Origin: Candidatus Hermodarchaeota archaeon
GTDB taxonomy: Archaea; Asgardarchaeota; Lokiarchaeia; Sigyniarchaeales; SOKP01
Assembly: GCA_048885925.1 (NCBI GenBank)
Contig: JBHLLG010000004.1
Coordinates: 32,001 to 96,000, forward strand
Direction of reading: 5' to 3'
Length of the DNA stretch: 64,000 nt
Shown here piece by piece: positions 3,158 through 32,515 of the stretch. Every line of letters starts with the position of its first letter. Position 1 is the stretch's first letter. A program made the position numbers and the translations under genes. A model generated the notes under the pieces. The model did no database searches. It saw only the letters and a list, made by a program, of their open reading frames with translations, and had not been told where the DNA came from.

Positions 3158-4501
3158 TTATTCTTTTCTTTTATACCTACTTTTAGAAGCACCACATTCA
3201 CATTTAAAATCGTCTGGGAGATCCTTAAAAAGAACGTCCATTTTAATTTCATCGTATTCTTTGCCACAATTTTCACATTTATAAACATATAATTCTAATA
3301 ATTTTCTCAATTCATCTCTATCTACATCTTGTTCCATCTTTTTATTAACATATGAATTAGCTTTAGTTTCTCCAAATAAAATTGCTCCTTTAAGTTTATT
3401 ATCTTTTAAAATTATTTTTTGGTAGCAACAGTCTTTTTTATCTGCTTTTTTTAATATTTCCCATCCTCCACCATGTTCTTTTGAAGGATCGATTACCCCA
3501 ATTGAAGTTAAATCAAGACCTACAATTTTCAAAGTGTTCTTAGGAGTGGTTCCTTCATACTTTACTTTTTTTGCTCCAAGTACAGATGCTGCTACTATTT
3601 TTGATTGCTCCATACATGCTGGAATAATACCCCATATCTGATTTTTATATTCTATGCAATCTCCAACAGCGAATATATCTTTTATATTAGTCTCTAAGAA
3701 TTCATTTACAATAATACCTCTGTTTGTTTCAATATTTGCATCTTTAGCGATATCTATTGTTGGGGTAATTCCGGCTTGTATTAAAACAAGATCTGCTTCT
3801 AATTTCTTTCCACCTTTTAACTTTATTCCAGAAACTTTCCCATCTCCGAGGATTTCCTCTGTTACCGCATCTAAAACCACCATTATTCCTCTATTTTCAA
3901 TTTCTTCTTTTAACATAGTACCACATTCAGCATCTAATTGCCTGGGAAGCAATTGAGGAAAAAATTCAACTACAGTTGTATCTAACTTACAAAATTTTAT
4001 TTGGTTTGCCAATTCTAAACCAAGTAATCCGCCTCCAATTATAATAGCCTTCTTAACTTCATTTTTTTTAATATGATTTTTTATTTCAAGCGCATCATCA
4101 ATATTTCGTAGTGTAAATACTCCTTTTTTGTTAATATTCATTTCAATTGCATTTTTAATTGGAGGTATATTTGGAGTACTACCTAAAGCTAAAATTAACT
4201 TATCATATCCAATAGAATTATTTTCTCCATTGAGATATATTTCTTTAACCTTAGGATCAATGCTATTAACTTTTTTATTTAAATATAAATTCAATTCTTT
4301 ATTTTTATACCAATCTTCTTTGAAAACAATTAAATCTTCAATCTTTACATTATCGGAGATTAATTCGGGTAATTTAACTCGAGTATAATATGGATAGCTC
4401 TCTTGAGTATAAATTTCAATTTCAACATGATTATTAAGATAACGGATATTTTGAGCGGTAAAGGTACCCGCTACATTATTCCCTATTATAATAACTTTCA
4501 T
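3158..4501 (-). CDS. NAD(P)H:rubredoxin oxidoreductase-like flavoprotein with C-terminal rubredoxin-like domain
   Basis: FAD/NAD motifs IIIGNNVAG, IIGGGLLGLE, IFAVGDC; C-terminal YKCENCG...FKDLPDDFKCECG. Confidence 0.85.
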   Translation of the reverse strand: MKVIIIGNNVAGTFTAQNIRYLNNHVEIEIYTQESYPYYTRVKLPELISDNVKIEDLIVFKEDWYKNKELNLYLNKKVNSIDPKVKEIYLNGENNSIGYDKLILALGSTPNIPPIKNAIEMNINKKGVFTLRNIDDALEIKNHIKKNEVKKAIIIGGGLLGLELANQIKFCKLDTTVVEFFPQLLPRQLDAECGTMLKEEIENRGIMVVLDAVTEEILGDGKVSGIKLKGGKKLEADLVLIQAGITPTIDIAKDANIETNRGIIVNEFLETNIKDIFAVGDCIEYKNQIWGIIPACMEQSKIVAASVLGAKKVKYEGTTPKNTLKIVGLDLTSIGVIDPSKEHGGGWEILKKADKKDCCYQKIILKDNKLKGAILFGETKANSYVNKKMEQDVDRDELRKLLELYVYKCENCGKEYDEIKMDVLFKDLPDDFKCECGASKSRYKRKE

Positions 4502-4658: not shown

Positions 4659-6595
4659 ATGAAAAACGATAGAATTTCTTATCATAAGTCTGTTCAAAAA
4701 GCTTATGAAAGACTTAAAAAAGATGGCATGAATAACATTTGGGATCGCTTTGAAGCACAAGGATTTGGAGGTGTCCCTGATAAGCGATGTCCATTTTGCT
4801 TAAAAGGAGCTCGCTGTGATTTATGCTCTAATGGTCCATGTAGAGCAGATTCCTCAATTGATAAACATGGTGTATGTGGTATTACTGCAGATGGGATGGC
4901 TATGCGGATGATGCTCCTTAGAAATGTTATGGGTGCATCTACTTACCATTATCATACTGAAACGACTTTGAAGACCTTAAAGGCAACGGTAGAAGGTCAA
5001 ACTCCATTTAAAATTGCTGAACCTGATAAATTGAAAAGTTTTACCGAACGATTAGGGTTGGATACATCTGGTTCAGAGAAAGAAATTGCATTAAGCCTAT
5101 ATAACTTTGTAAAGGAAGATTTCAATAGATCCTATGATGAACCAAGTAAAATTGTAGAGAAATTAGCACCACTTGAAAGACAAGAAGTATGGAAAAAATT
5201 AGGAATTTTTCCAGGTGGACTATATGGCGAAATGATGTTCTCAACAAGCTCTTGCCTTACAAATGTAGATGGATATTATGCAAGTTTAGCTCTCAAAGCA
5301 ATGAGACTTGGGATTGCGATGGCTTACCAAAGCCAAATTGTCAATGAATTCACTCAGGATATTTTATTTAATATTCCCAGACCTCATATTATGAGAGTGA
5401 ATCTTGGGGTATTAGACCCAGATTATGTAAATGTACTCCCTAATGGCCATGAACCATTCTTAGGGTTTGCAATGGTTCAACTTGCACGTAAATCTGAATG
5501 GCAAGAAAAAGCAAAAGCCGTTGGTGCAAGAGGTCTAAGAATAATCGCAAATATTGAAACTGGGCAGGAAATGATACAAAGATGGGAAATGGATGATGTA
5601 TTTTATGGATTTACGGGAAATTGGATCATGCAAGAAGCAATTTTGGCAAGTGGTTGTATTGATGCTTTTGTTTGTGATATGAATTGCTGTATGCCAATTG
5701 ATCCTATATATGCAAAAAAATATAAATTCAAATTAGTCCCAGTCTCTGAAGTTGTAGCCTTTGAGGGCATAACTGAAAGAGTAGATTATAAACCCGATAA
5801 AGGTGAAGAACAAGCTGCAATGTTACTACAAATGGCAATAGATAATTTTAAGGAGCGCAGAGCAAACATAGAACCTATTACTGGTTTAGATATGAATGAA
5901 GCAGTAGTTGGTTTTTCAAGTGAAAGTATTGTTGCAGCTCTCGGAGGTACACTTGGACCATTACTCGATCTAATAAAGAATGGAACTATACGAGGAGTTG
6001 CTGGATTAATATCATGCACAACGCTTAGGGATTATGGACAAGATGTACATACAATTGACGTGGCTAAAGAATTAATTAAACGAGACATTTTGGTATTATC
6101 AATGGGGTGCGGTAATGGTGCATTACAAGTTGGAGGATTATGTTTACCAGAAGCTAAAGACTTGGCAGGTCCCGGTCTTAAAGCAGTTTGTGAAAAACTT
6201 GGAATTCCTCCAGTTCTTAGCTATGGAACATGTACAGATACAGGGAGAGTTGCTGATTTATTAGGCTCAATTTCCGCTGCACTTGGCGGAGTCCCAATTC
6301 CAGATTTACCCGTTGTAGCTGCAGCTCCAGAATATATTACTAATATTTTCTAGATTAGTAAGTTCCAATGGAGCAAAAAGCGTCGATAGATGCTCTCTTC
6401 GCACTGGCTTTCGGATTATATACCTACGTAAATCCTGTTCTCACAATCACGGGCGGTGCAGATTTAATGAAGTTATTAACTGAAGACTTGAAGCATCTCA
6501 CAGGTGGAGTATTACATATGGAACTTGACACAAAAGAAGCGATAGAGAATATGTTAAAGCATATTGAAGCAAATAGGAAGAAGTTAGGTATTTAA
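4659..6595 (+). CDS. cooS: Ni-CODH family protein CooS; exon 1 4659-6335, exon 2 6368-6595; 634 aa if spliced
   Basis: RCPFC...CDLCSNGPC, GVCG, NGHEP, DMNC, GLISC, MGCG, YGTCTD; the conserved APEYMEQKA motif is split by a 32-nt insert. Confidence 0.9.
6336..6367 (+). other. Candidate 32-nt bulge-helix-bulge intron in cooS mRNA
   Basis: GCUCCA/UGGAGC exon helix, GAAU/GUUC 4-bp central helix, 3-nt bulges AUA and CAA, UUACUAAU/AUUAGUAA intron stem; canonical cuts restore the frame. Confidence 0.85.
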
Positions 6596-7085
6596 AATCA
6601 AATTTCTAAATAATTAATTTTTTTTTTTCATTTTCTTTTTTCTTTAATTTTGGTTTTTGCGGTAATTATTTACAAAATCATCAACTTATTGCTGCGAATC
6701 ACCATAGAATTTATAGATGACTTTATCTTTAGAATATTCTTTTTCAACTCGAAGACTTAACTCTCTAGCTTCGAACTCAAGCATTTCTTTACTCTATTCG
6801 GTAATATAAGTGGAAAAATTCCTTCCTTTTGAAATAACACATAAATAGTGAGGGTGTATAAGAAGTTCATCTCCATCAATATTTCGATAGCGGCATCACT
6901 ACCCTTCAGACGGTGATGGAGATGGAGAAGTTGCCATCAATGGATATAATGTAATGCTAATGTTCAGTATTATAACTGGGATTAGTTTCCTTTTAATTAA
7001 GAAATTAAAGCACAAATAAATTTCTAAAATTTTTTTTCCTATTTTCTTAAGAAGATGTTATTTATACTAAATTTTTAAACTTCCC

Positions 7086-8567
7086 CTAATTATATTTAAA
7101 TTTCTTGCTTTCTTGATATCCTGTTCCAATTATTTTACCAATTTTATAATAACGATTATCTAATGCGTAGATAATTGGATCTAATTTTGTCATATCTGCA
7201 ATTGTCTGGTCTTCTTCGCTTTTAATCACAAAATCTTTACTAACATAAGATTGTACAACATCTCCAATAAAAATCTGTCTATGCTGAATTGAGAATTCCT
7301 TGATAACTTTGCATTCTAAATTCACAGGGCATTCCCGAATCATGGGTGCTGTATTTAGGTCACCATAGAAAATTTTAAATAGTTGTGACTTATCCACCTC
7401 TTTTCCAGATACTACACCGCAATAATCAGTTTTTACCAGAAGCTGAGTTGTTGGAAAATTAATACTAAAGGTTCTTTGTTCGAGAATTCCTTGATTTGTA
7501 TAATGATCTTGACCTGATGAAATGTAAACAAGAGGAGGTTTAATACCCATTATTCCGACGTCTCCCAATGTCTCAAAATTAGGTTGATTATTAACAAGTG
7601 CTCCAGCAAGAATGATCGGGACAGGATAAACTAAAGGAACTTTTCCAAATTTAACTTTTTCAGCAGAGGATAATGTTTTTATGATGAAATTATCCATTTG
7701 ATTTATTAGCCAACTTTTCAAAGGATCTTGAATGGGAACCTTTTTAAGATCTTCTGGATCCTCATAACGAGCTGTAATCAATTTATTAACATTTTTAGCT
7801 CGATAAACAAATGGGCAATTGTAATATAGATTTAATGGATAATTGTAATCAAAAGGGAGTTCATAAAGTTCAATTCTTTCCATGGTCGAGAGAATCACAC
7901 CTGATAAGATTGCTTGATGGATGAAAATAGCATAAATGTAGTTCTTATTGTAATAATCGTTAAAACATTGTTCATTATATAATTCTCTATAAGAATTCCA
8001 CCATGATTGAAGTAGTCCTTTCTCTGGTCTAACAATCAAACAACCCGCATTAAAATAAGGTCGAATCTTGTTATGGTCAACATGTGTTTTCATTGGAAAA
8101 ATCTGTTCTTTAGAGATATTACATTTTTGATACACTTGTTCCCAAAATGGATCCATTGGTTCATCATAGAATGACCCAATATTGACGTGATGAACTGGTC
8201 GATAACCTAAATTCTTATCATCATCTAAAATGAAGTGTTTTGGCTCATTAAAAATAATTGTATTTGAACCAAGCCATGCAAGAAGTCTTGCTTTTTTTTT
8301 TGCTAATGATTCAGCCTTTGCAGCAGCAAAAACATAGTTAATAAAGGGAAATTTTGGCTCATCCTCAGTTGCAAAAGGAATAAGATCAACATTCAGTGAT
8401 AAAAATAAATTTTTTAGCTCTTTATTGATATTCTCTTCCAATTCTGGGATTAACACCCAAATTGGATAATCTGATAAAGATTCTCCAAATTTACGAATAC
8501 TTGCTGCAAGGATTAGATCTTTTGGGTCTGAACAATCAGAGATATAAGCAAAAATTAATTTTTCCAT
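7086..8567 (-). CDS. Fusion of a glycosyltransferase-8-like N-terminal domain and a flavin reductase-like C-terminal domain
   Basis: YFNAGCLIVRP and LPFDYNYPL in the N-terminal part; YPVP...FSINFP...DYCGVVSG...APMIRECPVNLECKV...IFIGDV in the C-terminal part. Confidence 0.7.
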   Translation of the reverse strand: MEKLIFAYISDCSDPKDLILAASIRKFGESLSDYPIWVLIPELEENINKELKNLFLSLNVDLIPFATEDEPKFPFINYVFAAAKAESLAKKKARLLAWLGSNTIIFNEPKHFILDDDKNLGYRPVHHVNIGSFYDEPMDPFWEQVYQKCNISKEQIFPMKTHVDHNKIRPYFNAGCLIVRPEKGLLQSWWNSYRELYNEQCFNDYYNKNYIYAIFIHQAILSGVILSTMERIELYELPFDYNYPLNLYYNCPFVYRAKNVNKLITARYEDPEDLKKVPIQDPLKSWLINQMDNFIIKTLSSAEKVKFGKVPLVYPVPIILAGALVNNQPNFETLGDVGIMGIKPPLVYISSGQDHYTNQGILEQRTFSINFPTTQLLVKTDYCGVVSGKEVDKSQLFKIFYGDLNTAPMIRECPVNLECKVIKEFSIQHRQIFIGDVVQSYVSKDFVIKSEEDQTIADMTKLDPIIYALDNRYYKIGKIIGTGYQESKKFKYN

Positions 8568-31552: not shown

Positions 31553-32515
31553 TTACAAAACATTTGTAAAGATGTTAATAATAATTATTATTGTAGAAAA
31601 TCCAATTAATCCAATTAAGAATTTCATTGGATTTCCCTTCTCTTTTTCAGGGATGACTTCCCTTACAATAACATATAAAATTACCCCAGAGATGAAAGAA
31701 TAGAATATAAACAGAAGTTCTAAATTAACGGGTATAAATGAATTTATTATTAATCCAATTAAAATACCGGTTAGCGCGGAACCACAGGATATGTACATAA
31801 GAATCGGTTTTTTCTCAAGTCTTTTTTCTTCATAGATTTCCAAATCGGTAAATATAAGATGTGCTTCAGATCTTTTTGTAACAACAGTTCTAAAAAAGGC
31901 ATAGATAAAGAAAAGTATGCCTCCAACAAGCTCAATGATTAATAATCCTATTAAAATAATACCAACAAGAAAGTGGTAAATATAGTCTGTTATAAATCTA
32001 AATCTCGTTAAATCTTCATTAACATGGTTTTGAATTTTTATTTTGTAATTGTTTATTTCTATTTTCATTCCTTCTTCTTGTTCATTTAATTCAGATAATG
32101 TTCGAGCTATTTCTTTTAATGCGGGTTCGTCTAAATTTTCGCGTGTTAATTCTTGAGTTAGAATTTTTTCCATATTTCGCTCAACACTTTCTAATACTTT
32201 TTCTTTTGCGAGCAATTTCCTCATTTTTTTTTGAGTATGTATTTCAACTTTCTGTAGAATAAGCTTTTCACTTAGATGAATAAAAGAAAACCCAATTAGT
32301 ACAAAGAGATATTCGAATAATTTTAATTCGAAAGGAAAAACTGGTAATCTTTCGGCAATTTCAGGAAGGACTATAAGGAAAAAATACGACACTGATATTC
32401 CGGCAATTAAAGACGCATGTGCTTGAATAAGTTTTTGCTCAAAATAATCTGCGATAAAAAAAAAAATACCAAATACTATAGCAAGAATTGTAACTATTAT
32501 TAAATTAACACTCAT
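31553..32515 (-). CDS. ZIP-transporter-like membrane protein with coiled-coil insertion
   Basis: AGISVSYFFLIVLPE and SGVILYVIVREVIPE resemble ZIP TM motifs; charged helical insert in the middle. Confidence 0.6.
   Translation of the reverse strand: MSVNLIIVTILAIVFGIFFFIADYFEQKLIQAHASLIAGISVSYFFLIVLPEIAERLPVFPFELKLFEYLFVLIGFSFIHLSEKLILQKVEIHTQKKMRKLLAKEKVLESVERNMEKILTQELTRENLDEPALKEIARTLSELNEQEEGMKIEINNYKIKIQNHVNEDLTRFRFITDYIYHFLVGIILIGLLIIELVGGILFFIYAFFRTVVTKRSEAHLIFTDLEIYEEKRLEKKPILMYISCGSALTGILIGLIINSFIPVNLELLFIFYSFISGVILYVIVREVIPEKEKGNPMKFLIGLIGFSTIIIIINIFTNVL

Follow-up and report, generated by a model that had tools for sequence, protein, structure and literature searches.

Splicing of archaeal pre-mRNA by protein enzymes has been confirmed for cbf5 alone and predicted for other genes, according to the passages of PMC2738675 that deal with it. 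The same passages give the rule by which the splicing endonuclease EndA cleaves the motif known as bulge-helix-bulge (BHB), between residues 2 and 3 of the bulge. In its relevant part, a later paper (PMC7714728, 2020) gives the BHB motif as occurring in "one mRNA" and describes a further mRNA, of Haloferax volcanii (HVO_1309), as a substrate of EndA. A 2025 structural paper cites only the cbf5 work, the BHB section of a 2026 review treats the motif under tRNA splicing only, and according to a 2026 preprint Asgard archaea have gained tRNA introns repeatedly, with no mention of mRNA introns under the terms searched. An earlier note on the DNA studied here had stated that mRNA introns of this kind are known mainly from crenarchaeal cbf5, which agrees with these parts of the literature. 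The open-access literature searched yielded no account of BHB introns in protein-coding genes of Asgard archaea, nor of one in cooS, the gene for the catalytic subunit of CO dehydrogenase (CODH). Here we describe such an element in a stretch of 64,000 nucleotides (the window) from Candidatus Hermodarchaeota archaeon, positions 32,001 to 96,000 of contig JBHLLG010000004.1. Its cooS gene is interrupted by 32 nucleotides (nt) that we read, with a probability of about 85%, as a real and conserved BHB intron, most likely spliced by EndA and the ligase RtcB.

The cooS gene and its 32-nt insert

In the window cooS is divided between two open reading frames (ORFs) that lie in different frames, at 4659-6353 (564 amino acids, aa) and at 6368-6595 (75 aa). 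Exon 1 occupies 4659-6335 on the forward strand and has 559 codons, the last of which is the Tyr of APEY. It is followed on the same strand by the 32-nt BHB intron, 6336-6367, running from the third nucleotide of bulge 1 through the second nucleotide of bulge 2, and by exon 2, 6368-6595, with 75 codons and a stop, starting from the Met of MEQKA. These 32-nt boundaries are set by the cut rule, between the second and third bulge residues. At the DNA level the placement of the insert can slide by 0, +1 or +2 nt with the product unchanged, and the BHB rule selects one of these placements. Excision of 6336-6367 joins both frames into a CooS of 634 aa with the junction APEY-MEQKA, as in intact homologs, and the same 32 nt are missing from intron-less alleles.

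The Prismane profile of Pfam is matched by exon 1 over positions 3-458 (E = 8.5e-118) and by exon 2 over positions 458-512. Since the two matches abut, a single family has been cut here at one profile position. The product of exon 1 is 83-95% identical to Asgard CooS proteins of 634 aa, and 110 of the 120 best CooS homologs have 634-637 aa. PEYMEQKA was read in every full-length homolog whose junction matched a regular expression, and MEQK follows PEY in 109 of 119 sequences with a recognisable PEY site. The product of exon 2 can be aligned over its whole length with residues 555-629 of a CODH of known structure (629 aa), and also with residues 561-633 of the 636-aa CODH-II. In the numbering of the latter alignment the Lys of MEQK is residue 563, which presumably has a catalytic role. 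Unspliced RNA would encode a protein without the last 75 residues of CooS.

The nearest CooS proteins come from sources named Promethearchaeota, Hodarchaeota, Thorarchaeota, Odinarchaeota, Heimdallarchaeota and Lokiarchaeota. Promethearchaeota are placed by the taxonomy in the kingdom Promethearchaeati, which is the formal name of the Asgard archaea. The earlier note had proposed an Asgard host from the letters of the DNA, in agreement with these names and with the taxonomy. Its statement that the cut rule removes exactly 6336-6367 and yields a 634-aa CooS is confirmed, and the coordinates, pairings, bulges and loop that it gave for the motif are right to the base.

How would such a transcript be processed? 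The gene would be transcribed together with its insert. In the RNA the edges of the exons would pair and the insert would form a hairpin, so that two opposed 3-nt bulges come to stand 4 base pairs (bp) apart. EndA would cut each bulge after its second nucleotide, RtcB would ligate the exons, and the 32-nt intron would probably be circularised. The mature mRNA would then be translated into the full-length catalytic subunit of 634 aa. We infer the cleavage and ligation of cooS RNA in the cell from the sequence.

Structure of the insert site

The site of the insert, window positions 6324-6374, is a strict helix-bulge-helix-bulge-helix (hBHBh') motif that is evident from the sequence itself. A 4-bp helix separates two bulges of 3 nt each on opposite strands, which is the defining feature of a BHB, and helices flank them on both sides: the exon helix, of 6 bp, and the intron stem, of 8 bp, both of which appear in every single-sequence fold. 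The 5' strand of the exon helix (6324-6329) pairs with its 3' strand (6369-6374); this pairing is present in the minimum-energy fold and requires the Glu codon to be GAG. In the central helix 6330-6333 pair with 6362-6365, making 4 bp of which one is U-G. Bulge 1 is formed by 6334-6336, with the predicted 5' cut at 6335/6336, and bulge 2 by 6366-6368, with the predicted 3' cut at 6367/6368. The intron hairpin, 6337-6361, consists of the 8-bp stem (6337-6344 with 6354-6361) and a 9-nt loop (6345-6353), inside which there is an in-frame TAG at 6351-6353. All of these elements lie on the forward strand.

The fold of the 63-nt region has an energy of -16.4 kcal/mol (z = -3.7), and 0 of 200 shuffles equal it. 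The exon helix and the intron stem also formed each time when the five cooS variants described below were folded singly, with z from -2.2 to -4.9. How often would such a motif arise by chance? Below, G000 stands for the genome of the window, other G and L labels for related genomes and fetched loci, and X labels for sequencing runs. The strict scan covered 3.9 Mb of G000 (181 contigs, with the window on contig C4), two strands and 110 inner lengths, or about 8.6e8 placements, and gave 2357 matches. The rate is about 3e-6 per placement, so that chance would not be expected to put a strict motif in register with an insert defined by homology.

Inserts in related cooS genes

This CooS is found in 100 of 399 genomes of the phylum. 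In 3 of the 95 phylum genomes with a match reaching residue 560 (G000, G170 and G183) the open frame ends at the junction. Among the 120 best homologs, eight end 3 to 10 residues past APEY, with four different tails. The junction could be read in 30 fetched loci, of which 3 have an insert and 27 have none. A degenerate pattern anchored on the exon edges, which allowed inserts of 17-47 nt, was run on metagenomes and genome records, and matched 11 metagenome stretches and 4 genome records. Five of these 15 matches are cooS, each with exactly 32 nt, while the other ten are unrelated genes with spans of 42-44 nt. There are five distinct 32-nt inserts at one codon boundary: those of the window, of L032/L051, of L033/L052, of L039/L045 and of L040.

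The structure of the motif is kept across these five variants. Bulge 1 is unchanged in all of them, the exon helix is paired in 29 of 30 cells, the intron stem in 40 of 40, and the central helix in 19 of 20, with one-sided changes between G-C and G-U and between U-G and U-A. The hairpin loops vary freely. Over all 90 cells 97.8% are paired, as against 20-46% with the partner slid by 1-3 columns. Three pairs of the intron stem have changed on both sides, once from C-G to U-A and twice from A-U to G-C. The covariation score was 0.322, a value reached by 1 of 500 shuffles, versus 0.213 in shuffled data, with these statistics drawn from five sequences that represent about three lineages.

The exons of the insert-bearing alleles are also under selection as coding sequence, exon 2 as strongly as exon 1. 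Exon 2 has 225 nt and is open in 5 of 5 variants. The ratio of non-synonymous to synonymous substitution rates (dN/dS), where the synonymous distance was computable, was 0.03-0.10 for exon 2, with 0.05-0.11 over the final 600 nt of exon 1, low values that may partly date from intron-less ancestors. Synonymous sites are saturated among insert-bearing cooS alleles; G183 and L040, which share one intron type, differ by 6 synonymous changes and 2 non-synonymous ones. As the Glu codon of the exon helix, GAG is used by 5 of 5 insert alleles versus 7 of 26 intron-less alleles, and the Tyr codon is TAT in 5 of 5 insert alleles, with TAC in 9 of 26 intron-less ones, contrasts that are inflated by kinship. 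Taken together, the five inserts at the same site, the covariation, the constraint on the exons and the codon bias make chance or decay unlikely.

Two other cooS loci are unusual in their own way. In L034 (G164) the junction is intact and unrelated sequence follows MEQKAT, with a stop 7 codons on (a frame of 579 aa), which may be due to rearrangement or misassembly. In G278 the open frame around the cooS match (G278:C1:2631250-2632923) extends to 1401 aa, suggesting that cooS is fused with a neighbouring gene. In the window itself, the divergent neighbour of cooS is an FAD/NAD(P) oxidoreductase with a rubredoxin-reductase C-domain, at 3158-4501 on the reverse strand (Pyr_redox_2, 1.9e-55; Rubredoxin_C, 4.4e-15). 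The other neighbour, at 7086-8567, also on the reverse strand, encodes a protein of 493 aa with a flavin-reductase-like domain at the C-terminus.

A second interrupted gene

Is cooS the only gene of this genome with such an insert? In the strict scan of G000, 18 of the 2357 motifs restore an open frame only when spliced. Two of these 18 are 32 nt long and have a stem of 8 bp and a loop of 9 nt, namely the cooS insert and the one at G000:C31:18957-18988 on the reverse strand (L054 2458-2489). The latter splits the gene of a 4Fe-4S dicluster protein (ferredoxin-like), located directly downstream of an aldehyde:ferredoxin oxidoreductase (AOR-family) gene. The same cut rule, acting here within an Ile codon, restores a CxxCxxCxxxC motif in the form CNGCAFCIRAC, as in 11 of 11 intact relatives (L056-L066). 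The open frames of these relatives have about 185 aa, versus 105 aa in G000.

Related genomes carry inserts in the same gene. G183 (L067), which also has the cooS insert, has a related 32-nt insert at the same ferredoxin site, with a less regular inner stem. In G182 and G215 (L068, L069) an unrelated 32-nt insert lies in the ferredoxin motif with its cut 1 nt downstream, and the BHB there is relaxed, with a central helix of 3 bp plus G-A. A third site was found in G165, which belongs to another genus. There the first Cys motif of the ferredoxin-like ortholog is interrupted by an insert of 34 nt (L080 279-312), and the cut rule restores CTGCE-TCESIC, with the junction at the hyphen. The unbiased minimum-energy fold of this insert, which makes up 65% of the ensemble (z = -4.5), has the form of a textbook BHB. 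The central helix is formed in the minimum-energy folds of the ferredoxin inserts of both G000 and G165, unlike that of cooS. By the cut rule, this second gene thus has at least three further predicted cut positions among related genomes. Its inserts were not alignable to those of cooS with MAFFT.

Paralogs with internal stops were considered as additional cases and rejected, as 7 of the 8 fetched loci are intact, with the stops upstream of the starts; the eighth (L080) is the third site described above.

Splicing enzymes and genome-wide scans

Genes for both enzymes of the proposed mechanism are present in G000. Its EndA has 198 aa (L001 1177-1773) with N and C domains (PF02778 at 7.8e-8, PF01974 at 7.1e-29), and its RtcB was identified with PF01139 at 4.8e-171. 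Introns were called by ARAGORN in 19 of the 31 tRNA genes of this genome. The cbf5 gene (TruB_N; G000:C12:40850-41191, L081) is uninterrupted, a single open frame of 342 aa with no stops.

Many tRNA genes of G000 are longer than 100 nt, seemingly with more than one intron each. At G000:C8:82388-83811 ARAGORN reports a tRNA-Pro with an "intron" of 1335 nt.

Several observations weigh against the reading of the cooS insert as a spliced intron. On the side of the enzymes, a second EndA subunit was not found in G000 with PF01974 or PF02778, and a two-subunit EndA of broad specificity is reported for Asgard archaea in the relevant part of a 2018 paper. A positive control on tRNA introns placed strict matches in 2 of the 19 tRNA genes with introns; neither match has the boundaries given by ARAGORN, a program not made for the long, multiply interrupted tRNA genes of this genome. 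A looser local search in 16 of these 19 genes gave one call of the same length, offset by 2 nt (tRNA-Ser GGA). On the side of the structure, the A/U-rich central helix of 4 bp is absent from the cooS folds that the energy model predicts, where a 7x7 loop takes its place in all five variants. In addition, the central helix of L052 contains an A-C mismatch, and there is a mismatch in the exon helix of L039. The few sequences behind the covariation statistics and the possible ancestral share in the low dN/dS count on the same side. As to expression, 20 runs from 9 studies contain the cooS gene and none of them is recorded as RNA; the metatranscriptome X21, of the same study as run X2, gave 0 contigs, a result that has no bearing on expression.

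The wider scans of G000 belong here as well. In a relaxed scan of 192,631 motifs 789 restored a frame, versus 720-783 in four controls with shifted cuts, and the controls still scored high when the motifs were ranked by helix quality. A scan for the architecture of 28-36 nt gave 28 restoring sites, versus 35-41 in the controls. The lists from these two scans held nothing convincing besides the cooS and ferredoxin sites, and the scans would miss a bulged exon helix such as that of the G165 motif. Since there is no excess over the shifted-cut controls, the case rests on homology and not on scan statistics; such introns would be few per genome, with homology deciding each one.

Gain and loss of the insert and alternative explanations

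The insert is present in DNA from more than one source. A contig of run X1, which may be the source sample, spans 6125-6602 with 0 differences, and a contig of run X2, from another study, spans 6332-6447 with 1 difference. We considered and rejected an assembly artefact, as the insert is found in independent assemblies and in contigs of runs from two studies. When the insert was searched in G000 with blastn-short, the matches listed were a full-length self-match and otherwise words of at most 16 nt; with a single copy among the matches listed, it is not a dispersed repeat. Intron-less alleles are present in the same habitats as insert alleles. Contigs of relatives in X1, X2 and X4 pass from the edge of exon 1 into exon 2, with loose ends at 6337, and in one X4 contig 3 of 205 exon-1 bases differ and exon 2 follows directly with no insert.

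In the tree of exon-1 proteins insert-bearing alleles stand at no fewer than four places, and within one tight clade insert-bearing and intron-less alleles are interleaved. The closest pair of alleles with and without the insert is 1 residue apart in about 560. Identity of the intron is 24-27 of 32 nt among three lineages with saturated synonymous sites, and 16-17 of 32 nt to a fourth type. This distribution points to repeated precise loss, gain, or conversion between alleles.

Such a distribution bears directly on the idea of the earlier note that the intron works as a post-transcriptional switch, in which a controlled efficiency of splicing would set the amount of active CooS. The truncated protein expected from unspliced RNA, without the last 75 residues, speaks for it, as does the analogy with XBP1/HAC1 splicing. 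However, the insert is missing in most close relatives and is polymorphic within a near-identical clade, and the loops and much of the stem vary freely, with nothing conserved beyond the needs of the BHB itself. As alleles separated by a single residue in about 560 may have or lack the insert, the switch finds no support and we consider it unlikely. Because presence and absence vary between near-identical alleles, a dispensable element is favoured over a switch. The cooS insert is most likely a dispensable element, occasionally gained or lost, and not a regulatory device.

The same polymorphism could be taken as a sign of recent damage. The insert would then be a hairpin-forming DNA element that has inactivated cooS and left it a pseudogene, with the likeness to a BHB being of no consequence. 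It fits this explanation that the insert is polymorphic among near-identical alleles, as if recent, that only 3 of the 95 phylum genomes with a match to residue 560 carry it, and that none of the runs containing cooS is recorded as RNA. Yet both exons are open in five diverged variants, and exon 2, which would then be untranslated, still has a dN/dS of 0.03-0.10. The compensatory changes in the stem, the fixed length of 32 nt and the fixed codons of the helix also speak against it. So do the single copy of the insert among the matches listed, as opposed to a dispersed repeat, and the exact restoration of a frame that recurs in another gene at three cut positions. We consider inactivation unlikely.

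It is very improbable that cooS is a split gene, whose polypeptides of 564 and 75 aa would be two separate translation products that combine into an active enzyme. The ATG of exon 2 does lie exactly at the junction, and the stop of the first ORF is 14 nt upstream, so that coupled translation is conceivable. However, this ATG encodes the conserved motif Met of intact proteins, the read-through tails differ freely among variants, and the conserved BHB geometry and the covariation would be left unexplained. In the ferredoxin-like gene, moreover, exon 2 has no start codon and begins in the middle of a codon, and a single Cys motif is divided by the break.

Translational bypass, in which ribosomes would skip the 32 nt in the manner of phage T4 gene 60 and the mitochondrial byp elements, could make use of the stop codon and hairpin soon after the take-off region but is hardly credible, since the take-off and landing codons are unmatched (TAT before the insert, CCA before the ATG), the ferredoxin-like junction lies inside a codon, and the two 3-nt bulges 4 bp apart are unexplained.

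The reading that we prefer, a BHB intron in the mRNA of an Asgard cooS gene that would be removed by EndA and RtcB, was put forward in the earlier note and is supported by all sequence-level and comparative tests run. Among the checks proposed there, that of the insert in raw data was made at the level of contigs of sequencing runs, which contain the insert, and the alignment of orthologs revealed inserts in relatives with stems that covary. Of the genome-wide BHB scans, the strict one led to a second site in the ferredoxin-like gene, and the relaxed ones showed no enrichment over controls.

Comparison with known systems

Splicing of mRNA by protein enzymes, documented essentially for cbf5, is now predicted, from strong comparative evidence, for central metabolic genes of Asgard archaea, at several sites and in a form that is polymorphic in populations. 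For annotation this means that interrupted genes are called truncated, and metabolic reconstructions from metagenome-assembled genomes of Asgard archaea may wrongly drop CO dehydrogenase and other genes. For the study of evolution it offers a tractable case in which coding genes have gained and lost introns, within the lineage that stands nearest to eukaryotes. The combination of a BHB motif, a restored frame and an intact ortholog can serve as a test applicable to all archaeal genomes.

A further suggestion is tentative. This Asgard family may harbour BHB mini-introns that are still moving into and out of protein-coding genes, through reverse splicing and reverse transcription or through gene conversion between alleles. 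Hints of mobility come from the four cut positions in two genes, from the length of 32 nt in 8 of 9 distinct variants despite differing proportions of stem and loop, and from cuts 1 nt apart within the same motif of the ferredoxin-like gene. The presence or absence of the insert between cooS alleles 1 residue apart is another hint, as are intron sequences far better kept (24-27 of 32 nt) than the synonymous sites, already saturated, in the genes that carry them. If this possibility were true, splicing of mRNA by the tRNA enzymes would be recurrent in the closest archaeal relatives of eukaryotes, and not the curiosity of one gene.

How does the cooS intron compare with systems already described? 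With the eukaryotic splicing of XBP1/HAC1 by IRE1 and RtcB it would share cleavage by an endonuclease, ligation of the RtcB type, a very short mRNA intron and a shift of frame. The nuclease, IRE1, and the RNA motif are different there, and XBP1/HAC1 splicing is regulated by stress, of which there is no sign in cooS. The BHB introns of archaeal tRNA and rRNA have the same motif and presumably the same enzymes, EndA and RtcB. Unlike them, the cooS intron has an mRNA as its host, so the cut must also preserve the reading frame.

In Haloferax volcanii the HVO_1309 mRNA is likewise cut by the splicing endonuclease (PMC7714728). For that mRNA only the cleavage is known from the passages compared, whereas here a reading frame would be restored.

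The closest counterpart is the cbf5 intron of Crenarchaeota. In the parts of PMC2738675 compared here, it too is a short BHB intron located within a protein-coding gene that follows the EndA cut rule, has a patchy distribution with gains and losses, and would otherwise cause the gene to be mis-predicted as frameshifted. The differences concern the host, the gene and the motif. The cbf5 introns occur in Desulfurococcales and Sulfolobales, in a gene for an RNA-modification enzyme, and most of their motifs are described there as unconventional. In contrast, the introns reported here belong to Asgard archaea and to metabolic genes (cooS and a ferredoxin-like gene next to AOR), with a strict motif in cooS. 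Their hosts are cooS and a 4Fe-4S gene, and their position is not that of the catalytic-Asp codon of cbf5. Splicing of cbf5 was confirmed by cDNA (PMC2738675, in the same parts), while that of cooS is deduced from sequence. The cooS intron is a cbf5-type archaeal pre-mRNA intron in a new lineage and in new genes.

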